UHGV virus genome: UHGV-0131811 | Strand: one strand, 5' to 3' | DNA: 64,000 nt | Source of the DNA: a virus | Part shown: positions 37,916 through 64,000 of the stretch, piece after piece | Position numbering within the stretch: the stretch's first letter is position 1 | Layout of the letters: every line of letters begins with the position of its first letter | The notes under the pieces: generated by a model | What the model was told of the DNA's origin: nothing | What the model saw: the letters and a program-made list of their open reading frames with translations, nothing else | The model's database searches: none | Position numbers and translations under genes: made by a program

Positions 37916-39390
37916 TATTTATTTGCCTTATTTGCTGTGCTTGGGTCTTTCGCTGAAGGTGTCTTTGCAGTACCTTCTCCAGCGGTCTTATAACCATCTC
38001 CTGAACGGCTTTGGCTATTTGGAGAAAGCTTTTCAGATACTGGCTGAGACTCATCAGCAGGAGGAAGACCAATATGCTCTCTAAGCTTGTTAGATAGTTC
38101 TTTGTCAACTTCCAAAGCACCTACTGCAACAGTCTTCTGAATATAAGAACCAATTGCTTCAAGGTCTGGAGTTTCGATATCATCATATGTGATTTGTACA
38201 TGTTCTTCATCATCCCACATATTAAGAGCATAAGTCTGTGCAACTAAGTCACGGTTAATTACGTTCTTAATTTGCTTCAGCAGAATATCTACTGACATCG
38301 CTAATAAGCTTGTCTTAGAATCTGCAAGAGAGAATGAACCGTATTTTGACTGACCCATAGCAAGAACATCTGACATAAATGCCATCATAATCTGCTTGGA
38401 GTATCTGTCAATAATAGAACCTGTATCGTATGCTTTAGCACCCTGTCTAGAAACTAATGAGAACTCGAAAATATCCTCTTTAGTATCTGGGTCGATATAT
38501 CTAGGCCAGATTAAACCTGCTCTGTCATTAGCAATCATATCGTTGACAACAGTTTTGCAGTATTGTACGAAAGCTTTCTTTTCAGGTTCTGCATTTTCAT
38601 CCAGATAATCTGGTGGTAAACCAATCTTTGGCATACCTACCAAGTCTCTTGAAACACCAACAGCTTCATACTCTTCAATCTGTACTTTATACTTCCACGG
38701 TACATAAGCATTAAGTAATGGTGAACGACCTTCTGGATTTCCATATTCATCGTCATACTTGAACAGCATGAATTTAGCTCGTGGAAGTTTTCTTGTTAGT
38801 GGTCTTTCTCCGAGATTAATTGCTCCAGCAATATGTGAAACATTTCTCAGATTCTGCCTAACACCTGTAACTTTTCTAAAGTCTTCGTCAAAATACCACT
38901 TATCAAGTGTTGATTGGTTTCTGATTGGTAATTTAGCCCATCCAATTAGACCATCATCAAATTTAGACTGGTACTTTCCTTTTTTACCCTGACGCTTCTT
39001 ATAAACTTTCTCGTTAACACAGAACCCATAAGTGCAGAATGACATTACAGAATTAATAAAATCTGCCCAATCATGCTCCATGTCATCCATTAAAGAATTA
39101 AAGAAGTCTGCTCTTTCAAGCATTTTAGGGTCTTGCTCTTTTCCCTTTGGAGGTACGAATCTCCAGTTGACTTTTCTGACAAACATCTTAATAATATTTA
39201 CAGATGCTGCTACAGCAGGGTCACGCATCATTAATTGGAAAGTTTTAATACTTTCAGGGAACCTTAGTGCCTGACGAGGTTCTTCATAGATTCTTCCATT
39301 CTTAACCTTCAGACCCAAAGAACCTACTTCACCCATTCTAAATGGTGGTAAGCTTTCTTGTGTTTCTGTAATATCTGCCATTCTTCTCAC
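37915..39390 (-). CDS. Putative portal protein
   Basis: 491 aa immediately downstream of large terminase; basic/Ala-rich C-terminal tail. Confidence 0.6.
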   Translation of the reverse strand: MRRMADITETQESLPPFRMGEVGSLGLKVKNGRIYEEPRQALRFPESIKTFQLMMRDPAVAASVNIIKMFVRKVNWRFVPPKGKEQDPKMLERADFFNSLMDDMEHDWADFINSVMSFCTYGFCVNEKVYKKRQGKKGKYQSKFDDGLIGWAKLPIRNQSTLDKWYFDEDFRKVTGVRQNLRNVSHIAGAINLGERPLTRKLPRAKFMLFKYDDEYGNPEGRSPLLNAYVPWKYKVQIEEYEAVGVSRDLVGMPKIGLPPDYLDENAEPEKKAFVQYCKTVVNDMIANDRAGLIWPRYIDPDTKEDIFEFSLVSRQGAKAYDTGSIIDRYSKQIMMAFMSDVLAMGQSKYGSFSLADSKTSLLAMSVDILLKQIKNVINRDLVAQTYALNMWDDEEHVQITYDDIETPDLEAIGSYIQKTVAVGALEVDKELSNKLREHIGLPPADESQPVSEKLSPNSQSRSGDGYKTAGEGTAKTPSAKDPSTANKANK

Positions 39391-56686: not shown

Positions 56687-57235
56687 ATGGGAAAAGATAA
56701 CTTAAAAGATGTTGAAGGTAACTATCTAGTCCTTGATTGGAGTGATGCTCAAGAAGCACTCTCTGAAGAAAGTCTTGACAGATTAAAACAGATTGTTTTT
56801 GCAGTACGGGGTTACAGAGAAGTTAAAAATGGTAAAGACCCACTTGAAGGAGTCTTTGTAGAGAAATCTTATCCGTTCTATGAAGACACTTTGCAGAAAG
56901 TTAAGATGTACTTTAAACAGAAGAACCGTAAAGTGGTCACTATGGTTTCTCTTGGTGGACAGAGTATGTCTGTGATGGAAGACATCAACCCTAAGAGACC
57001 GAGTAAAGGTGTTTGTATAAAAATCACAGGACATGAAGAGTATATCTCAGTGGATGACTTTAGTGCATTCTGTAATGGGTCTGCTGTCTTTAATGGGTTT
57101 CACTATGATATCCGAGTGTATCCAATCAAGGGAGATGATATCATGATGCAGATATTCGATAACAACAACGGACTCACTCATTTTTATCAGACAACTAAGT
57201 CATCCCTAAAAACAGTTCTGGAAACACTGATTTAA
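56687..57235 (+). CDS. Hypothetical protein
   Basis: ATG 56687 chosen to avoid overlap with upstream gene; track start is 56642. Confidence 0.4.
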   Translation: MGKDNLKDVEGNYLVLDWSDAQEALSEESLDRLKQIVFAVRGYREVKNGKDPLEGVFVEKSYPFYEDTLQKVKMYFKQKNRKVVTMVSLGGQSMSVMEDINPKRPSKGVCIKITGHEEYISVDDFSAFCNGSAVFNGFHYDIRVYPIKGDDIMMQIFDNNNGLTHFYQTTKSSLKTVLETLI

Positions 57236-57245
57236 AATATCTTAA

Positions 57246-57275
57246 GAGCCTCCTTAATCGGGGGCTTTTTAATTT
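57246..57275 (+). terminator. Terminator-like hairpin after last plus-strand gene
   Basis: AGCCTCCTTAATCGGGGGCT followed by TTTTTAATTTTTAT. Confidence 0.5.
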
Positions 57276-57299
57276 TTATAAAATTTTATCGGTTGTCCC

Positions 57300-58760
57300 A
57301 ACCTCTGGGTCACCATCATATGTGAACAAAATATCTATCCTTCTTAACAACCTTCTTAATCTTACTCTCTATATAGTTATATAGTACTATATAGTATCTT
57401 AGTAACTATCTAGTGGTCTTAATAGTCCCTCTGTATAACCCTTCTAACAAGCCCTCTAACAAGTCTTCTTAACAACCTATACAATCACCTTAACCATCTC
57501 TCTATACCCTCTTAGAAGCTCCTATACACCTCTTAATCTCTATGTCAGCTATGATACCCTCTATAGGTGTTCACTAGGTATTACTAAGCCTCTATATAGA
57601 CTGTTTTAACAAACTTAACAGGAATATCTTTACAGACCTTATCTCACAAGGTCTAACACGGTACTAACAAGGTATCTTATAAGCCTGTTTCTGCCTGTAT
57701 TTTTAAAAGGCTGTATAGGTAATTATTCAGAATCTTAAAATTTTTATAAAATAGGACTATCAAGTCATTTTTTAGGGTCTTTGAAGGAACTGAAAAATAT
57801 CTGTAGAAGATGTATATCTGCTTGGTAGCCCTTAACAGCTCCCTTACAAGTACTTTGCAAAATCTTAAAATATCATTAACAATCTCTTAACAACTCTCTC
57901 AAGTTCTTAACATCTCTTCAGAGGTCTTAACAGATTCTTAACAGAACTAACAAGGTTGTAACAAGTTCTTAACAGTTGATACATAGGCTTTACAGAATCT
58001 TAACAGATGACTAACAAGAGCTAACAAGTTAATTTTAAAGGGTTATTTTGTTAAGATAATTAACAAGTTTCTAACAAGTGTTTAATCTTTTTAACAAGCT
58101 ATTAACATGGTCACTATCTCTTTTCTTATCGTTCCCTTTACTTCTTAGTGATTCCTTAAACATACCTCTTAAAAGCTCTCTATAGCCCCTTATAAGTTCT
58201 TTTAAGCCTCTTCCTAGTATTTACCCCTCAACTGTATGGATAGCTCTTTATAGGGCTTTACAGGAGCTTTTAAGGCTATGTCAAAGACTCTTACAAGGCT
58301 TTTACGTGGTCTTAACAGAGATTTAACAAGGGGCTAACAAGTCTCTAACAAGCATAACTATGTAGGGATTGTTAAGAAATTGTTAAGAAAATGTTAAGGG
58401 GGCTAGCATTTACGTAGCTTTTAAGCTATCTATCACGTAACTTTATAGCCCCTATAACATACTTTTTAGTGACTATCAAGGGATTGTTTAGATATTCACA
58501 AGATACTAGCCAGCTTATAAGCTTGTACCCTTATAAGATTCTTCTAAGGCTCTGGGAAGCTCTATAAAGGGCTTTTTAGAGTGGGTTAATATGATTGCTT
58601 AAGTTAGGTTGATAAGGCTGTTATAGAGCGTTATAGAGCGTTTTAATGGTTGCCCTTCCCTTTCGGGTTATGGGCTTATATTTAAGTTGATTTGATAAAA
58701 GGCTATAGAGTAGACTATAGAGTTATTGCTTTTAAGGTATGGGATAGATTCTAGGAAGGA
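57300..58760. repeat. Iteron-like array: about 25 copies of (C/T)TAACA(A/G)G with AT-rich TATATAGT repeats and other short direct repeats
   Basis: AT-rich TATATAGTTATATAGTACTATATAGTA at 57390-57420; TAACAAG/TAACAG copies clustered 57450-58360; GTTATAGAGCG x2 at 58617-58638; TTGTTAAGAAA x2 at 58368-58390. No ORF of 60 aa or more on either strand. Confidence 0.6.
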
Positions 58761-58859
58761 AAGGAAAGAGATTGTATAGAGTTTCTTTATAGACGTAAAA
58801 AAGCCCCTATGAGAAGGAGCTTTTAAGGTATCTGGGGCTATTTAGCCCCGTTGCGTCGA

Positions 58860-59108
58860 TTAGTTAGTGCCATCTTTGTCGTAGTATAGGGAGACAATTT
58901 TTTCACCCCAATAGTGATAAGAATAACCATCTTTGAGAACTTCCTGTTTTGTTTCTTTCCAGAACTCATCAGAAGGGTTATAGTCTTTGATGGTTTGACT
59001 GATAAGACCTTTCACCATCTCAAAGGCGTTATCAGTACCTACAAGGTCAAATTTAACATCCAGAGAGCAAAAGCCGAATTCGTTAACAGTTGCGCGGATA
59101 GTAGCCAT
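58860..59108 (-). CDS. Hypothetical small protein (early-gene array)
   Basis: Start set to ATG behind GGAGATTCTAAA RBS; the track N-terminal extension is a translation of the conserved 5' leader. Confidence 0.5.
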   Translation of the reverse strand: MATIRATVNEFGFCSLDVKFDLVGTDNAFEMVKGLISQTIKDYNPSDEFWKETKQEVLKDGYSYHYWGEKIVSLYYDKDGTN

Positions 59109-59185
59109 TTTAGAATCTCCTAGTTTAAGGTTTTTATTTAGTAGGGAGGTCATCCCTCCCCGTTGATTAGTAATTTACTGCATGT
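59109..59185 (-). promoter_or_regulatory. Conserved 5' leader, class A (hairpin GGGGAGGGAT-GACC-TCCCTAC + TAAACTAGGAGATTCTAAA)
   Basis: Near-identical copies at 59439-59515, 60577-60655, 61801-61875, 62665-62745. Confidence 0.55.
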
Positions 59186-59438
59186 TGGCGTAGGTTGCAA
59201 GCCTTTTTTCGTTGTATTTTGTAAGAATCTCACAAGATAGAACATCGTACTTTGTAACCGCTTTGCTTTTGTCGAGGTCAAAAAAGCCAAATGCTTTACC
59301 ATCTTTGAATCCGACAACTTCGTAAGATTCTTTGATGATTTCACCATTGAACAAATCACTCTCTATACGGTGAAATAATGCTACGTCTTCCTTGTCGGTT
59401 GCGATTTGTAAGAGTGTGGTCAGTTCTACGTGTTCCAT
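59175..59438 (-). CDS. Hypothetical small protein
   Basis: 87 aa; ATG behind class A leader. Confidence 0.5.
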   Translation of the reverse strand: MEHVELTTLLQIATDKEDVALFHRIESDLFNGEIIKESYEVVGFKDGKAFGFFDLDKSKAVTKYDVLSCEILTKYNEKRLATYANMQ

Positions 59439-59515
59439 TTTGAATCTCCAGTTTAGGACTTTACTTAGTGGGGAAGGTTATTCCCTCCCCGTTGATTGAT
59501 AATTTACAGACTTTT
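59439..59515 (-). promoter_or_regulatory. Conserved 5' leader, class A
   Basis: AACGGGGAGGGAATAACCTTCCCCACTAAGTAAAGTCCTAAACTGGAGATTCAAAATG in sense. Confidence 0.55.
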
Positions 59516-60034
59516 GATTGTCTCGTCAATATCTTTTTCAATTTCTCTTAAAGTTTTTTCTAAGTTCTTGATATTCAGCATTAACCCCTCTCCCAGTGTC
59601 TTAGCGTAACCATTTGGGCGATGGTCATAAAGCTCGATTTCTTCCACTTCGTAAAGGCTGACATTGAAGCCCCCTACCCCGTAGGCTGTGGATGAAGTGC
59701 CTTCCGGTGCTTTGTAGTATTTATTGAGATTCTTTAAAGAGCGCTCGTAAGCCATACGATAACCGTTTAACACTGTTTTAGTGCATTCACGAACACTTTC
59801 ACACTGTACGGCATACTTTTCTAAGAAGAGCGGGAGGAGTTCCGCTACAGCTTGCATAAAGTTAGAAACTACAACCGTAGAAACATTACGACGATGGATA
59901 TAATAAGCCCCGTTGTTTGATTTGGTGATGGTAGCAAAGTGTTCACCATTGCAACGGAATTCGTAGGTATCCTTAACAGGCTTAGACATGACACTATTTG
60001 AGCGAATGTAGTTGATAGCTTTGAACTTGTTCAT
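59504..60034 (-). CDS. Hypothetical protein
   Basis: 176 aa; ATG behind GGAGATTCAAAA RBS. Confidence 0.5.
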   Translation of the reverse strand: MNKFKAINYIRSNSVMSKPVKDTYEFRCNGEHFATITKSNNGAYYIHRRNVSTVVVSNFMQAVAELLPLFLEKYAVQCESVRECTKTVLNGYRMAYERSLKNLNKYYKAPEGTSSTAYGVGGFNVSLYEVEEIELYDHRPNGYAKTLGEGLMLNIKNLEKTLREIEKDIDETIKSL

Positions 60035-60234
60035 TTTTGAATCTCCAGTTTAGGAAAGCATTATTGCTTGAGATAAACTATAAAGTTTTTGGAAGATGAT
60101 TGCAAGCAATTTTTTAAGTTTATCTATAAAGAATCTTTTAAGTGAATCCCTTTTAGATAAACCCCCTCGAACAAATGTACTATTGTCAAGGGGTATTGTC
60201 AACACTTTTTTAAAAGTTTTTTATAAGTTATTGA

Positions 60235-60576
60235 TTAACTGATGAATATTTTTTCAGGTTTTACATAGCTGATACGCTGACTTTTTAGCAGGTCATCCCA
60301 GATTAGCGCGGCGATATGGGCATAACCGGATTCACGTAAAAGCTTCATTGTTTTACTTCTAGTTTCAAAACGGCTTGCGTAGTACTCACTATTTAAAACC
60401 GTTTTATTCCCTTCGTTATCTACATGGATAACCTGCATCACTTGAAATGGGCTTACATCCTCGCCTTTATTCCACTGCTCAAAGTATTTTAGGCACTGCA
60501 TAGGTGACATCTTGTCACTAACCTGAGTTGACCAAGATGAATTCTCTTTATCAGTAATTACGGTTACATAAGCCAT
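60235..60576 (-). CDS. Hypothetical protein
   Basis: 113 aa; ATG behind class A leader. Confidence 0.5.
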   Translation of the reverse strand: MAYVTVITDKENSSWSTQVSDKMSPMQCLKYFEQWNKGEDVSPFQVMQVIHVDNEGNKTVLNSEYYASRFETRSKTMKLLRESGYAHIAALIWDDLLKSQRISYVKPEKIFIS

Positions 60577-60655
60577 TTTTAGAATCTCCAGTTTAGGACT
60601 TTATTTAGTGGGGAAGGTCATTCCCTCCCCGTTGATGTGTAATTTACAGACTTTT
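60577..60655 (-). promoter_or_regulatory. Conserved 5' leader, class A
   Basis: Hairpin GGGGAGGGAATGACCTTCCCC plus GGAGATTCTAAAAATG. Confidence 0.55.
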
Positions 60656-60666
60656 ATCAGGCTTGT

Positions 60667-60900
60667 CTAGTCTTTTTCAATGATAATTTCATATTGACCA
60701 TCAACACTGTCGAAATAGATTCCTTCTTCATCTTCTGTCTTAAAGTAGCATTGTATATCATCACTGGCGGGATAGTCTTGTCTTGCTATCTGGCAAACCT
60801 GAATAGCATTTTCTTTACTTCCTGTAAACTCTTCAAGCCCTTTAAAGTCACATGAATGACCGCTACAGATAGAAAGGATGAGATAAATGGTTGTAAGCAT
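60667..60900 (-). CDS. Hypothetical small protein with N-terminal signal-like segment
   Basis: 77 aa; MLTTIYLILSICSGHSC hydrophobic start with Cys; lacks the conserved leader. Confidence 0.4.
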   Translation of the reverse strand: MLTTIYLILSICSGHSCDFKGLEEFTGSKENAIQVCQIARQDYPASDDIQCYFKTEDEEGIYFDSVDGQYEIIIEKD

Positions 60901-60966
60901 GATTTAAGCCCTCTAAAAGCCCCTGTAAGGGGTTAATCAGTGTTTATAAGGTGAATGTATAGGTTT

Positions 60967-61509
60967 TTAGAAAAAGACCTTTAAATCACTCTCTACAATG
61001 TTTTCTGTCAGTGTATCCATGATGTCACAAAAAACCTGAATACTGTCGGATTGTTGGATACTTTTAGCAAGTAGCTCCAATGTTTCATCAAGATAATTTA
61101 AATTTGGGTTATCCAGTGAAGGGAGACAAAAAGGTGAATACATAGCGTTGAACTCTGTTGTATAGACCTTTTTAATCCAATTTACATCAAAGTACTCTGT
61201 AAAGCTTGCTATATTTGACATGTTATCACAAGAATAATCATCATTTAGCTCATCCTCTGGAATGTCAAGTTCTAAGATAACAATATTTTGAGTTTTCATC
61301 TGAAAAGCTGCCGTGATAGTGGCATTTCCTAGAGCTTGCTGGATACCTTCCGATGCTATCTCTTCCTCATCATCACCATAGAGTTTATTTTCTGGGTACA
61401 CGTAAAAATTGCCGTCCATATCCGAACAATTCCATACACCTGATGGTTTATCACCGTTATTAATCAGGTTGATAAAGTTTTCTTGAGTAGTACCGTGAAA
61501 GCATTTCAT
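60967..61509 (-). CDS. Hypothetical protein
   Basis: 180 aa; ATG behind class B leader. Confidence 0.5.
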   Translation of the reverse strand: MKCFHGTTQENFINLINNGDKPSGVWNCSDMDGNFYVYPENKLYGDDEEEIASEGIQQALGNATITAAFQMKTQNIVILELDIPEDELNDDYSCDNMSNIASFTEYFDVNWIKKVYTTEFNAMYSPFCLPSLDNPNLNYLDETLELLAKSIQQSDSIQVFCDIMDTLTENIVESDLKVFF

Positions 61510-61602
61510 TTTGAATCTCCTAGTTTAAGGATTTAGTGGTAAAGCTCTTTATCTGGGGCTTACTTTATCGAACTATAAGCCCCTTGTAAAGTACTTTATC
61601 AG
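61510..61602 (-). promoter_or_regulatory. Conserved 5' leader, class B (hairpin AAGGGGCTTA...TAAGCCCC + AGATAAAGAGCTTTACCAC + TAAACTAGGAGATTC)
   Basis: Near-identical copies at 62307-62391 and 63605-63691. Confidence 0.55.
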
Positions 61603-61800
61603 TTAATTTTTGACAACTTTTAAAACTGCAAGATAACCTAAGCAATAAGAATCACCGAAGAGAGTTCTACCCATGAAAGAATCATCTTTGATATCCTTTG
61701 CAGTGACTGTTTTTTCTACGCCGTGGGAAAGAACTACATCACCAACTTTAATGTCTTTGATGTGCGTGGTTTCAATGGTTAAACCGTTGATAATAGCCAT
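61603..61800 (-). CDS. Hypothetical small protein
   Basis: 65 aa; ATG behind class A leader. Confidence 0.45.
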   Translation of the reverse strand: MAIINGLTIETTHIKDIKVGDVVLSHGVEKTVTAKDIKDDSFMGRTLFGDSYCLGYLAVLKVVKN

Positions 61801-61875
61801 TTTGAGTCTCCTAGTTTAAGGACTTTACTTAGTGGGGAGGGTCATTCCCTCCCCGTTGATGTGTAATTTAATCTA
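61801..61875 (-). promoter_or_regulatory. Conserved 5' leader, class A
   Basis: GGGGAGGGAATGACCCTCCCC hairpin plus GGAGACTCAAAATG. Confidence 0.55.
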
Positions 61876-61901
61876 TCTAAAAATCAGTGTCAATAAAATT
61901 T

Positions 61902-62306
61902 TTAGAGTTCTGCATAAATTGCGTCGCAGATGTCACGAAAGTCATGATTTGCCAAATTACGTTGTAACCAAGTGGCAAAGAAATCAGCGATTGCAAAATT
62001 AGCATCATACTCAACAGATAGCCACACTTTCACGGCAAATCTAAACATTTTCAAGTCTAACTCTTTATTCATTACCTTAGATTTGCCTAACATGTCGGCC
62101 ATTTCATATTGTGCACCGTCTAGCGTGATACCTGCTGCAACGTCAGCCAATGAGTTTTTTACGTTTTCAACGTCTAAGATAACGCTTTGAATCTTTCCGA
62201 TAATGTTGTGCAATGTTTCATCCGGTGCTGATGATGTAATAACATTGATTCGATTAACGGTTAAACGTGCTTTTAAGATTGACAACTCACGATTATTAAT
62301 AGTCAT
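61902..62306 (-). CDS. Hypothetical protein
   Basis: 134 aa; ATG behind class B leader. Confidence 0.5.
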   Translation of the reverse strand: MTINNRELSILKARLTVNRINVITSSAPDETLHNIIGKIQSVILDVENVKNSLADVAAGITLDGAQYEMADMLGKSKVMNKELDLKMFRFAVKVWLSVEYDANFAIADFFATWLQRNLANHDFRDICDAIYAEL

Positions 62307-62391
62307 TTTAGAATCTCCAATTTAGGATTGAGTGGTAAAGCTCTTTATCTGGGGCTTACTGTACAGACTAATAAGCCCCCTGTAAAGTACT
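62307..62391 (-). promoter_or_regulatory. Conserved 5' leader, class B
   Basis: Shares TGGTAAAGCTCTTTATCTGGGGCTTA...TAAGCCCC with 61510-61602 and 63605-63691. Confidence 0.55.
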
Positions 62392-62664
62392 TTATACTAA
62401 ATGCAGTTTTTTACCTTTTACTATGATGTAACTTGATGTGCTATTGCTACATACATCCTGATAAATTCTGCGCAAACGTCCTTCATAGTATACTTTCCAG
62501 CTAGTTGGAATCTTTTTGCCGTATCCGGTAGCAGTTTTTTGGAGTCCTGCGACTTGCCAATCTAAGATATGTTGCTCAGCCTGTAAATCCTCAAAGTGCA
62601 TCACACCGTCTACATAGTGACGTAGAGTGACATTTAAAGTGCGACCGTTGTTAGTAGTATACAT
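62392..62664 (-). CDS. Hypothetical small protein
   Basis: Start trimmed to ATG at 62662-62664 behind RBS; track extension translates the class A leader. Confidence 0.5.
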   Translation of the reverse strand: MYTTNNGRTLNVTLRHYVDGVMHFEDLQAEQHILDWQVAGLQKTATGYGKKIPTSWKVYYEGRLRRIYQDVCSNSTSSYIIVKGKKLHLV

Positions 62665-62745
62665 TTTAGAATCTCCTAGTTTAAGGACTTTATTTAGTAG
62701 GGTGTTTATTGCCTCCCCGTTGATGTGCAATTTAATCTATCTAAA
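62665..62745 (-). promoter_or_regulatory. Conserved 5' leader, class A (variant)
   Basis: GGGGAGGCAATAAACACCCTAC variant plus TAAACTAGGAGATTCTAAAATG. Confidence 0.5.
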
Positions 62746-62753
62746 AATCAGTG

Positions 62754-63086
62754 TCAACAGTTTTGTTTTCGTTTGCTCAACTCTTGAACAATTACAGTAT
62801 GATAGTCTTTTAAGTCACTAATATTTAAAGCATTTATCAGAGAATTATAATCATCGACTAATTGAAAATCATCTTTGAAAATGTCGCTGATTTGATAAGT
62901 TCTCGCCCTGAATCTGAAGCTCATTTCTAACCGCTTTAATTGTTCATCGCTCAACCGCTCTAGAAAGCTCATTACAAGGCTATTGCTAACCTGTTGTGTA
63001 ATTGCCTTATTTGCTAGATTATAGGCTTTATATGCCTTATAGAGCGCGAAAATGGCAATGATTGCAGTGATACCAGTCATTAACAT
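62754..63086 (-). CDS. Hypothetical membrane protein
   Basis: 110 aa; N-terminal hydrophobic segment MLMTGITAIIAIFALY; start overlaps upstream stop. Confidence 0.45.
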   Translation of the reverse strand: MLMTGITAIIAIFALYKAYKAYNLANKAITQQVSNSLVMSFLERLSDEQLKRLEMSFRFRARTYQISDIFKDDFQLVDDYNSLINALNISDLKDYHTVIVQELSKRKQNC

Positions 63087-63376
63087 GGTGCTTCCTCTTT
63101 ACGTGACACTTTGCCATTTACAGTTATCTCATAAGAATCTAGTAAATCGCTTTTAGATTTGACAGGACTTTTAAGAGTATTATCATAGATATTGACTTGC
63201 AATACAGGTTTTTTATACTCCCTGCAACTATTCCATAAGCAAATCACTACACGACGACCTTTTATTTTGCCGTGTAACCATTCCATAACATCATGGCTAT
63301 TTCTTGATGTTTCAATGAAATCAATTTTGTTGAGTAATTTGCTTAGATTTTCACGAACTTTATTTGATAATTTCAT
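63080..63376 (-). CDS. Hypothetical protein
   Basis: 98 aa; ATG behind GGAGATTCAAAA RBS. Confidence 0.45.
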   Translation of the reverse strand: MKLSNKVRENLSKLLNKIDFIETSRNSHDVMEWLHGKIKGRRVVICLWNSCREYKKPVLQVNIYDNTLKSPVKSKSDLLDSYEITVNGKVSRKEEAPC

Positions 63377-63391
63377 TTTTGAATCTCCAGT

Positions 63392-63604
63392 TTAGGATAA
63401 AATAGTAATCGTAAAATTGTAATGACCATTAAGCTGATAAACATAACAGTTAGAGAATACACCAACTAACCGAGGTTTTCCATAAATTTTCATGCGCTCT
63501 TTAATCTCTTTGAGAGATTTCAAACCTGTAAGGTCTTTATTGAAATAGTCATCATCTGTGAATAGGACTTGTGAGGCGGTTTTCAGTTTTTGATTAATGT
63601 TCAT
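63392..63604 (-). CDS. Hypothetical small protein
   Basis: 70 aa; ATG behind GGAGATTCAAAA RBS. Confidence 0.45.
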   Translation of the reverse strand: MNINQKLKTASQVLFTDDDYFNKDLTGLKSLKEIKERMKIYGKPRLVGVFSNCYVYQLNGHYNFTITILS

Positions 63605-63691
63605 TTTTGAATCTCCAGTTTAGGATTAGTGGTAAAGCTCTTTATCTGGGGCTTAAGGTATCAACTTTTAAGCCCCTTGTAAAGTACTTTA
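63605..63691 (-). promoter_or_regulatory. Conserved 5' leader, class B
   Basis: Same hairpin and spacer as 61510-61602. Confidence 0.55.
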
Positions 63692-63982
63692 TCAGTTAAT
63701 TTTCAGCTTTGCATGACTTCTCATTGTACGAATTGGAGATGTTAAGGCTACGCGTCTAATATATGCCTTTTTCGTGTATACATTTGTCTTTCCGATAGTG
63801 TTTACACATGTAAAAAGATTCATTGGTGAATTTTTTAACTTCAACTGTTTATCAGCCTTCACACCCCATCTTACAGCAGATTGTTTTCCGTTGTCAACCA
63901 CTTTCCCGCCTAACTTTTTCGCCATGATGCGAGCGTCATCACGAGTTTTTACAGGAATTACAACGTTTTTGATAGTAGCCAT
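63692..63982 (-). CDS. Hypothetical basic protein
   Basis: 96 aa; ATG behind TTGGAGATTCAAAA RBS at window end. Confidence 0.45.
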   Translation of the reverse strand: MATIKNVVIPVKTRDDARIMAKKLGGKVVDNGKQSAVRWGVKADKQLKLKNSPMNLFTCVNTIGKTNVYTKKAYIRRVALTSPIRTMRSHAKLKIN

Positions 63983-64000
63983 TTTTGAATCTCCAATTTA

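Follow-up and report, generated by a model that had tools for sequence, protein, structure and literature searches.

Probable PeSL-like cassettes for the expression and shuffling of early ORFan genes in a Felix O1-like phage

Repeated motifs of ~100 bp, the PeSLs (promoter-early stem-loops), are found in T4-type phages upstream of ORFans in hyperplastic regions (PMC2839356, Arbiol et al. 2010). They show a fixed order of an upstream stop codon in an AT-rich flank, a sigma-70 promoter, a poly-G/poly-C stem-loop, a Shine-Dalgarno (SD) sequence and a start codon, and fall into five subclasses defined by the place of the stem, which may lie between the promoter boxes, over them or just downstream of the -10 (PMC2839356). 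PeSLs are associated with insertions and deletions between close relatives and were proposed to recombine and to form mini-circles (PMC2839356; PMC4122927, Comeau et al. 2014). Here we analyze an array of small minus-strand genes at positions 58860-64000 of UHGV virus genome UHGV-0131811 (a stretch of 64,000 nucleotides (nt), hereafter the window), in which two families of repeated leaders, class A and class B, precede most of the genes. We consider it probable that these leaders are PeSL-like cassettes through which early ORFan genes are both expressed and shuffled.

The best match of the block was Escherichia phage HY02 (91% identity over 100%), and all 254 phage records matched were Felix O1-like myoviruses (Ounavirinae, mostly Felixounavirus), whose hosts are Escherichia, Salmonella, Shigella and Citrobacter. 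On sequence grounds the window is a Felixounavirus genome. The counterpart of the block in Felix O1 is the gene 14-23 region, downstream of rIIA/rIIB, and the block end corresponds to terminator t23. The 13 genes announced by the earlier note were all located between 63982 and 58860 and encode products of 65-180 amino acids (aa). Their ATGs lie at 63982, 63604, 63376, 63086, 62664, 62306 and 61800 (g1-g7) and at 61509, 60900, 60576, 60034, 59438 and 59108 (g8-g13). At 64000 the window ends within the array, and relatives carry 2-4 further genes upstream. Each of the 13 products falls into a PHROG of unknown function, which is what one would expect of a hyperplastic early region such as this block; a Pfam scan of the g1-g10 products gave a significant match for none of the ten.

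Both leader families described in the earlier note as near-identical and provided with a GC-rich hairpin were recovered, three copies of class A and five of class B. The class A core CCCCAGATAAAGAGCTTTACCACT occurred three times without mismatch against none in 100 shuffles, upstream of the genes starting at 63604 (g2), 62306 (g6) and 61509 (g8), and the class B core TAAATTNNNNATCAACGGGGAGG five times, again against none in shuffles, upstream of those starting at 62664, 61800, 60576, 59438 and 59108. Both cores are confined to this block.

Class A leaders are built from AAAGTAC, a -35 box TTTACA, 17 bp, a -10 box TAnnnT, AAGCCCCA, GATAAAGAGCTTTAC, ~10 nt and the ribosome-binding site (RBS) motif. 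The 5′ arm of the GC-rich stem, GGGGCTTA, lies in the promoter spacer and the 3′ arm, TAAGCCCC, is the discriminator; the -10 occupies an apical loop of ~11 nt, with its last base(s) paired. A second stem is formed by (U)AAAGU.ACUUUA, with most of the -35, pairing with the downstream UAAAG.AGCUUU(A). The predicted helix thus comprises 11 bp with one mismatch, a 3x3 internal loop and an upper stem of 9-12 bp, 21-23 bp in total, and was obtained in both minimum free energy (MFE) and centroid predictions, also in a 150-nt context. Such a layout appears economical: sigma-70 reads neither the spacer nor the discriminator, so these positions would be free to form the arms of the GC-rich stem, and ~60 nt would accommodate both the promoter of the downstream gene and a hairpin for the message upstream. 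Class B leaders start with a -35 (TTGACA, TTGACG, TTGCAA or TAGACA), 17 bp and a -10 TAAATT, followed by 10 nt ending in ATCAAC, a hairpin with a stem of 7-8 bp (GGGGAGGG-loop-CC(C/T)TCCCC), ACTAA(A/G)TAAAG and the RBS motif. The stop codon of the upstream gene often lies within the class B -35 or -10.

All sequence-level features of PeSLs are thus present in the Felix O1-like cassettes. The class A stem straddles the -10 and the class B stem lies 10-11 nt after it, both being of the GGGG.../...CCCC type, and in both systems differences in gene content between close relatives map to the cassettes. There are also clear differences. The Felix O1-like lineage belongs to the Ounavirinae and is not T4-like, and no sequence resemblance to PeSLs was seen; Felix O1-like phages carry two dominant, highly uniform classes and few others; class A has an extra lower stem in which the -35 flank is paired with the transcript start; and the translation start is standardised and is itself a crossover site. 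Moreover, promoter activity, terminator activity and mini-circles have been shown for PeSLs, and the Felix O1-like cassettes are described here at the sequence level. Because PeSLs are an architectural and functional class and not a homologous family, we regard the cassettes as the same kind of element, not as one of the same descent. The sequences themselves were already known as direct repeats: in the Felix O1 paper they appear as one repeat of 57 bp, CTTTACATGGGGCTTAAAAGTCTGTAAAGTAAGCCCCAGATAAAGAGCTTTACCACT, and another of 39 bp, TTGACACTGGTTTTTAGATAGATTAAATTACACATCAAC, located between genes 15/16, 19/20, 18/19 and 20/21 (PMC3185647), and the wV8 record annotates DR_1 to DR_9 at cassette positions. 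Those repeats are the same sequences as the cassettes, but come without structure, promoter or evolutionary interpretation, and the promoter list of the Felix O1 paper (P11, P41, P45, P102, P117) omits the cassettes (PMC3185647). A literature search turned up no paper linking Felix O1-like phages to PeSLs.

Judged by consensus match and conservation, both leader classes contain ordinary promoters of the host sigma-70 type. A -35/17 bp/-10 geometry was recognized in all eight class A and B copies of the window. Among 266 distinct leaders from 58 related loci, collected via the RBS motif only, class A leaders kept this geometry in 111 of 119 cases and class B leaders in 109 of 111 (220/230 together). 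In the class A alignment retrieved with a hidden Markov model (HMM), the T and A of the -10 were invariant and the adjacent loop bases free to vary, and an extended -10 (TGn) was present in 34 of the 56 class A cores described below. The 20 nt upstream of the -35 are 65-80% AT (61% for the window), and upstream stop codons are located in this AT-rich flank, in the -35 or in the -10. One class B copy is labelled 'promoter' in the AYO145A RefSeq record.

What is known of Felix O1 transcription agrees with use of the host enzyme. Neither a phage RNA polymerase nor T4-like specificity factors were found in its genome, and the authors of the genome paper did not know how early transcription is organised, although their reverse transcription PCR (RT-PCR) table has ORFs (open reading frames) 13, 16 and 20-22 of this region peaking at 5 min (PMC3185647). 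Purified FelixO1 and VpaE1 genomes yielded infectious phage in an E. coli cell-free extract (PMC10933291), therefore the host polymerase can start the programme. A literature search turned up no transcriptome or mapped start sites for Felix O1-like phages.

The earlier note had named a phage-specific promoter class as one of three options; the promoter part of this proposal stands, and its phage-specific part does not, given the sigma-70-type -35, 17-bp spacing and -10, the frequent TGn and the AT-rich flank. A class read by a phage-encoded or modified polymerase, with an N4-type hairpin or a T4 MotA-type activator, would fit the overlap of the hairpin with the promoter region, and GAGCTTTA in the class A down-box resembles a T4 MotA box. 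We nevertheless judge it very improbable: the sigma-70 fit extends to more than 90% of copies, neither a phage RNA polymerase nor T4-like specificity factors were found in Felix O1, and naked genomes boot in E. coli extract. N4 promoters, read by the virion RNA polymerase, have a short stem and a 3-nt loop, unlike the ~11 nt of the class A apical loop. A MotA-like middle promoter made of GAGCTTTA and TAAACT was also rejected, as the spacing is wrong and the start would fall within the RBS/SD.

We then consider whether the hairpins are under selection. In the window, folding was more stable than in shuffles for seven of the eight copies (z = -2.3 to -4.0), and the hairpin of the remaining one, before 62664, is decayed (z = -0.8). 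For class A, the IMG/VR database was scanned with a pattern fixing only CTTTACA, TAnnnT and GATAAAGAG and leaving the stem unconstrained. This retrieved 52 stretches with 60 distinct cores, of which 56 fold (mean -12.1 kcal/mol), all from Felix O1-like contigs; the other four were chance matches, with no hairpin and in unrelated contigs and context. Among the 56 cores, stem position 3 was G-C in 49 and U-A in 6 (Kolesnikvirus GGTG/CACC), position 7 U-A in 46 and A-U in 10, and position 5 C-G in 27 and U·G in 27. The count of 41 G·U pairs and no A·C identifies the sense strand as the folding one, whether in RNA or in non-template DNA. The covariance analysis called for by the earlier note gave the same picture in an HMM-retrieved class A alignment of 72 sequences (A1): 99.0% of cells were paired against 95.4% in shuffled alignments and 32-60% with the partner slid, and 53 double-change cells were found against 13.1 in shuffles. 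One lower-stem pair was G-C in 111 distinct copies and U-A in 13 (with two different up-box variants), the 8 others being unpaired (6) or G·U (2).

Class B was analyzed in 106 distinct leaders from the 58 loci, chosen by promoter geometry and RBS motif; the hairpin played no part in retrieval. In 96 of them the distance from the -10 to the first paired base of the hairpin was exactly 10 or 11 nt, and these 96 contained 52 distinct hairpin sequences, such as GGGCAAGCAAGCCC, GGGAAACATCCC and GGGGAAGAAATCACTTCCCC. Mean MFE was -11.9 kcal/mol against -4.0 in shuffles, and the stems included 69 G·U pairs. A hairpin kept at a fixed offset while its sequence turns over argues for selection on structure. 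From these alignments we conclude that the hairpins are under selection, with compensatory changes spanning three genera. A search of 57000-64000 against Rfam 15 (E up to 1) gave two matches at chance level (E = 0.4 and 0.9), far under gathering score and neither in a leader.

If the elements were neutral remnants of cassette duplication, their similarity would reflect recent copying and the hairpins would have no function. Within a genome, copies are indeed near-identical, and each lineage has its own stem variant throughout (GGGG in Felixounavirus, GGTG in Kolesnikvirus), a pattern that points to copying or gene conversion. Against this stand the 99% pairing upheld by compensatory changes across three genera, the fixed offset of class B hairpins in spite of 52 sequence variants, and the drift of loop bases beside fixed promoter hexamers. 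The neutral reading is therefore largely refuted, and we leave it hardly any probability. The earlier note had named duplication remnants without conserved structure in related phages as the outcome that would speak against its proposal. Related genera instead keep the hairpins through compensatory changes, which makes a role at the RNA level plausible.

Two further interpretations of class A were tried and rejected. Both boxes could be read as protein-binding sites, the up-box AAAGTACTTT being perfectly palindromic and the down-box almost so. Natural variants disfavour this: they lose symmetry within boxes and keep complementarity between them, which favours strand pairing over two dimer-binding sites. 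Similarly, AGCTCTTTATC resembles a boxA of nut-like antitermination sites but is read on the plus strand, antisense to all block genes, and we regard the likeness as a coincidence; it is the plus-strand reading of the class A down-boxes, at 61535-61558, 62331-62354 and 63628-63651. As for distribution, four loci of more distant relatives (L003, L005, L034 and L040, from Erwinia Kolesnikvirus phages and Salmonella phage PMBT37) carry class A with the stem GGTGTTTA/TAAGCACC, no class B and a different RBS (AAGGA). Because these loci have class A only, we take class A for the older element, class B and the TAAACTGGAG motif being limited to Felixounavirus/Mooglevirus.

The gene content around the cassettes is highly variable. 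Gene-order maps of 25 related loci showed single genes gained, lost or replaced between A or B elements. Thus, g7 is missing in L033 and Moogle and has another gene in its place in L007; extra genes are found between g9 and g10 in wV8, L024, L056 and L007; g12 is missing in L024, and L012 is without g7-g9 and g11-g12. Likewise, g2 is absent from wV8, and most relatives carry another gene (x2) at its position. Some junctions can be placed precisely. L033 has the order g6-[B]-g8, against g6-[B]-g7-[A]-g8 in the window, and the last 24 nt of its single class B leader are those of the window g8 leader, which places the crossover within the shared motif. Similarly, the window order g9-[B]-g10 corresponds in wV8 to g9-[B]-extra gene-[A]-g10. 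When the window was compared with related loci by BLAST, 67 of 89 homology breakpoints fell in the leader and intergenic 23% of the block. The leaders of a given gene family also vary in class, 15 A and 3 B for the g8 family and 9 B, 2 A and 4 other for the g10 family, and the g6 family shows ten different class A loop variants. From these sequence comparisons, the junctions of single-gene exchange lie inside leaders or the shared RBS motif.

This motif, TAAA(C/T)T(A)GGAGA(T/C)TC with 4-5 A/T and ATG, precedes 11 of the 13 array genes, so that the shared pre-ATG motif reported earlier for most genes was found. No gene outside the block has it, and the one further occurrence in the 64 kb, at 39170, lacks a following ATG. 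The standard translation start reads (U)CC(U)-UAAACU-(A)GGAG-N7-9-AUG, in which a predicted mini-hairpin of 3-4 bp, UCC(U)-UAAACU-(A)GGA, hides part of the SD. Two forms were distinguished, CCT...GGAG (~180 distinct contexts) and CCTT...AGGAG (~95), with no mixed form among ~280; they differ by what looks like an inserted U-A pair, a change that amounts to a single evolutionary event.

Such features could belong to a translational operator or nuclease target co-regulating the early genes, through a GGAG-specific RegB-like enzyme or a RegA-like repressor. The restriction of the motif to genes of this block, the mini-hairpin over part of the SD and the inserted U-A pair without mixed forms would all suit such a role. 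However, the Kolesnikvirus (Erwinia) phages keep class A and use AAGGA as RBS, so concerted evolution fits better than a deeply conserved operator; the mini-hairpin is merely 3-4 bp, and the two haplotypes amount to one evolutionary event. No candidate binding protein or nuclease turned up, though no search was aimed at one. We hold this operator quite unlikely.

Taken as PeSL-like elements, the cassettes, with which nearly every small ORFan gene of the block is provided, would be portable units of four parts: an AT-rich flank usually with the upstream stop, a sigma-70-type promoter, a GC-rich stem-loop and a standardised translation start. Host RNA polymerase would fire each of them right after infection. 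The repeats of ~90 nt would at the same time serve as substrate for homologous recombination, allowing single genes to be inserted, deleted or swapped together with their own expression signals. The hairpins would act on RNA: they would attenuate, pause or insulate read-through, and the upstream message would end up with a protective hairpin at its 3′ end. The whole two-part class A helix would exist only in read-through RNA, since its lower stem pairs the -35 flank with +2..+12; the class B hairpin would begin at about +3/+4 of its own transcript, the start being placed 7-8 nt after the hexamer, and would thus form in read-through RNA and, in addition, near the start of the mRNA made from its own promoter, whose 5′ end it may protect. 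As the complete class A helix exists only in read-through RNA, and the hairpins of both classes come right after the upstream stop, their common denominator would be the upstream, read-through transcript.

A hairpin near the 5′ end of an mRNA (0-4 unpaired nt) impedes 5′-end-dependent decay by RNase E, and 5′-terminal stem-loops of the ompA type were reportedly found by Emory, Bouvet and Belasco in 1992 to stabilise E. coli mRNAs. The class B hairpin would resemble these if, as predicted, it lies 2-4 nt from the 5′ end of its own transcript; class A transcripts would lack a 5′ hairpin.

Several points weigh against the PeSL-like interpretation. The promoter assignment rests on consensus and conservation. 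The covariation counts, including the 53 double changes, are not phylogenetically independent, given descent and gene conversion, and overstate the number of independent events; up- and down-boxes are only ~50 nt apart, so that part of the signal might come from linked haplotypes of subfamilies. BLAST breakpoints such as the 67 counted above also arise where genes merely diverged, and recombination at the cassettes is read from its end products. The least certain step is the RNA-level role of the hairpins. No U-tract follows the stems of class A (AGAUAAAG) or class B (ACUAAGUA), and a terminator scan left them uncalled on the gene strand. Efficient intrinsic termination at the cassettes is doubtful, because the U-tract is missing and canonical hairpin-plus-U terminators are present after g8 and g13. 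We place the promoter assignment and the structural selection above our confidence in the scheme as a whole, and the precise role of the hairpins below it.

These observations bear directly on a literal promoter-terminator reading of PeSLs, in which the hairpins would be plain intrinsic terminators ending each transcript and the promoters would restart it. The stems are GC-rich, intergenic and placed directly after stop codons, and one PeSL stem-loop cut downstream lacZ as much as rrnB T1 (PMC2839356). Yet none of the class A or B stems has a U-tract or was called by the consensus scan on the gene strand, while true hairpin-plus-U sites occur in the same block at 60932-60915 and 58824-58797, and this alternative seems to us rather unlikely.

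Class A could otherwise be chiefly an RNA-processing site, where host RNase III or a phage nuclease cuts the helix in read-through transcripts, which would separate cistrons, leave a 3′ hairpin on the upstream mRNA and be compatible with the promoter assignment. Substrates of E. coli RNase III usually span two helical turns, and an internal loop limits cleavage to one strand, with a protective 3′ hairpin left (PMC1540722). The predicted shape of class A fits this description, with about two turns and an internal loop in MFE and centroid structures and compensatory changes in both stems, and since the whole helix exists only in read-through RNA, something must act on that RNA or on single-stranded DNA. 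T7 early RNase III sites are comparable: they lie between small early genes transcribed by the host polymerase, and their irregular helices measure about two turns and contain an internal loop; they carry no promoter, however, as T7 early genes share three upstream promoters, and the resemblance is one of predicted shape. On the other side, the class A lower stem is nearly all A-U and mostly invariant, so that covariation there rests on one pair; class B hairpins (7-8 bp) are too short, which leaves the two classes without a common explanation; and no Rfam family was matched. An RNA-processing role such as an RNase III site in class A is possible, and as the chief function of class A we consider it unlikely but far from negligible.

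A combination of both functions can be imagined, in which class A would be a dual-entry element with the promoter nested in an RNase III-type processing helix. The predicted class A start is the A of AGAUAAAG, at the 3′ edge of the upper stem and in the internal loop. If so, initiation and read-through cleavage would give the same mRNA 5′ end and the upstream message would keep a protective 3′ hairpin, whereas class B would give its own mRNA a 5′ hairpin, and the two classes would set two RNA fates for early genes. In a variant of this scheme, the non-template DNA strand may fold and present the -10 in a single-stranded loop. We regard the dual-entry element as a speculative and fairly improbable elaboration.

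The PeSL-like cassettes and genes of the array, all on the minus strand, are arranged as follows. At the window end, g1 (63692..63982; 96 aa ORFan, PHROG 5089, unknown function) has its RBS motif at 64000-63987, the rest of its leader being cut; a class A leader precedes g1 in 15 of 16 relatives. The class A cassette before g2 (63605..63690) consists of the up-box AAAGTAC (63690-63684), the -35 TTTACA (63683-63678), the upper-stem 5′ arm in the spacer (63677-63661), the -10 TACCTT (63660-63655), the 3′ arm and discriminator AAGCCCCA (63654-63647), the down-box GATAAAGAGCTTTA (63646-63633) and the RBS motif (63621-63613). The 70 aa ORFan g2 (63392..63604) has the 23-nt motif CCTAAACTGGAGATTCAAAAATG on both sides and forms a cassette. 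Only the RBS motif, with neither promoter nor hairpin, stands before g3 (63377..63399), overlapping the g2 stop codon. The next two genes, g3 (98 aa) and g4 (110 aa), occupy 62754..63376; the g3 reading frame runs to 63080, so that the g4 ATG (63086) precedes its end by 7 nt, and g4 is without its own leader in 17 of 17 relatives.

Class B before g5 (62665..62757) has the -35 TTGACA at 62757-62752, which includes the g4 stop TGA, the -10 TAAATT at 62734-62729, the degraded hairpin at 62718-62699 (z = -0.8) and the RBS motif at 62682-62673, and is followed by g5 itself (62392..62664; 90 aa ORFan). In the class A cassette before g6 (62307..62393), the -35 is at 62386-62381, the -10 TACAGT at 62363-62358, the down-box at 62349-62336 and the RBS motif at 62323-62315; g6 (61902..62306) is a 134 aa ORFan. 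Next comes class B before g7 (61801..61893), with the -35 TTGACA at 61893-61888, the -10 TAAATT at 61870-61865, the hairpin GGGGAGGGAATGACCCTCCCC at 61854-61834 (z = -3.3) and the RBS motif at 61817-61808. The 65 aa ORFan g7 (61603..61800) is missing or replaced in several relatives. The last class A copy, before g8 (61510..61597; z = -4.0), shows the -35 at 61590-61585, the -10 TAAAGT at 61567-61562, the down-box at 61553-61540 and the RBS motif at 61526-61517; it serves g8 (180 aa) and precedes g9 (77 aa), which has no cassette of its own (60667..61509 for both). A terminator with a 5-bp stem and a UUUU tail is found after g8 at 60932-60915, and the same site is annotated as terminator in wV8.

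Further downstream, class B before g10 (60577..60669) has the -35 TAGACA at 60669-60664, the -10 at 60646-60641, the hairpin at 60630-60610 and the RBS motif at 60594-60586, and g10 (60235..60576) is a 113 aa ORFan. The 176 aa ORFan g11 (59504..60034) is preceded by a third kind of leader (60035..60202), with a promoter TTGACA-17-TACATT at 60202-60174 whose -10 lies in the loop of a hairpin CCCCUUGACAA/UUGUUCGAGGGG followed by UUUAUCU (z = -2.9); its layout is that of class A and its sequence unrelated. A second promoter, TTGCAA-17-TATAGT (60105-60077), is accompanied by a small hairpin AAGCAAUAAUGCUU and the RBS motif at 60052-60039. The spacer between g10 and g11 (60140-60236, minus strand) carries two tandem TTGACA hexamers, one of them being the -35 of the promoter with the -10 TACATT. 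Class B before g12 (59439..59529) begins within the g11 coding sequence with the -35 TTGACG (59529-59524), and its -10 TAAATT (59506-59501) contains the g11 stop TAA; the hairpin is at 59490-59470 and the RBS motif at 59454-59446. The 87 aa ORFan g12 (59175..59438) is missing in some relatives. Finally, class B before g13 (59109..59200) has the -35 TTGCAA at 59200-59195, the -10 at 59177-59172, which includes the g12 stop, the hairpin at 59161-59143 and the RBS motif at 59126-59117, and the 82 aa ORFan g13 (58860..59108) is the final array gene.

Most class B loops (59143-59161, 60610-60630 and 61834-61854, minus strand) hold an AUG 2-3 nt past GGAGG, as in AUGACCUUCCCCACUAAGUAA, which opens a 6-codon mini-ORF MT(F/L)PTK; at 59153 it instead extends the next gene in frame at its N-terminus. 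A leader peptide or attenuation was discarded, since the AUG is missing in many copies (loops AAUAA, GAUAA, AAAC) and is only 2-3 nt from the SD-like run. The loop AUG is probably an annotation trap that causes the false N-terminal extensions of the ORF list. The extensions attributed to translated leader on three genes were accounted for in two (58860-59153 and 62392-62730); the third was not seen.

Past g13, a hairpin CAACGGGGCTAAATAGCCCCAGATA (58853-58829) has no promoter or gene behind it; it mixes a class B lead-in CAAC, a class A-like stem GGGGCTA/TAGCCCC and a class A tail AGATA, and by its sequence resembles the remnant of a cassette since lost. Directly downstream, at 58824-58797, comes the canonical intrinsic terminator AAAAGCUCCUUCUCAUAGGGGCUUUUUU, with hairpin and U-tract, which is annotated in AYO145A and Moogle; the annotation of wV8 ends before reaching this site. 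For the array end (58797..58853), z was -4.85. The ~1.6 kb downstream of the array (57240-58860) contain no convincing ORF and are packed with short direct repeats, such as CTTGTTA(A/G), TTAACA and CTATAAAG, in families of 3-5 copies. This stretch is conserved at ~91% in more than 200 Felixounavirus genomes, mostly unannotated or as 'repeat_region'. Our guess is a replication origin or other cis-acting site; it may also be a terminal repeat. The UAB_Phi87 record begins near the tRNA cluster, not with this stretch, but the paper that mapped the genome ends of this phage does not place the start of the deposited record at a physical end.

Beyond what the earlier note proposed, the elements match the PeSL kind of cassette and mark the junctions of gene gain, loss and replacement. 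The idea that promoter, hairpin and RBS travel with a gene as recombination handles would thereby be extended from T4-like phages to an unrelated group, that of the Felix O1-like phages, widely used for typing and biocontrol of Salmonella and E. coli. In practice, the cassettes would offer defined early promoters and insertion points for engineering these phages, and they explain annotation artefacts in which ORFs extend into leaders. The ~250 sequenced relatives constitute a natural experiment on cassette shuffling, and with two geometries to compare, one hairpin surrounding the -10 and the other at about +3, the role of such hairpins is directly testable. The design suggests a convergent, general way for virulent phages to keep fast-changing early host-takeover genes expressible.

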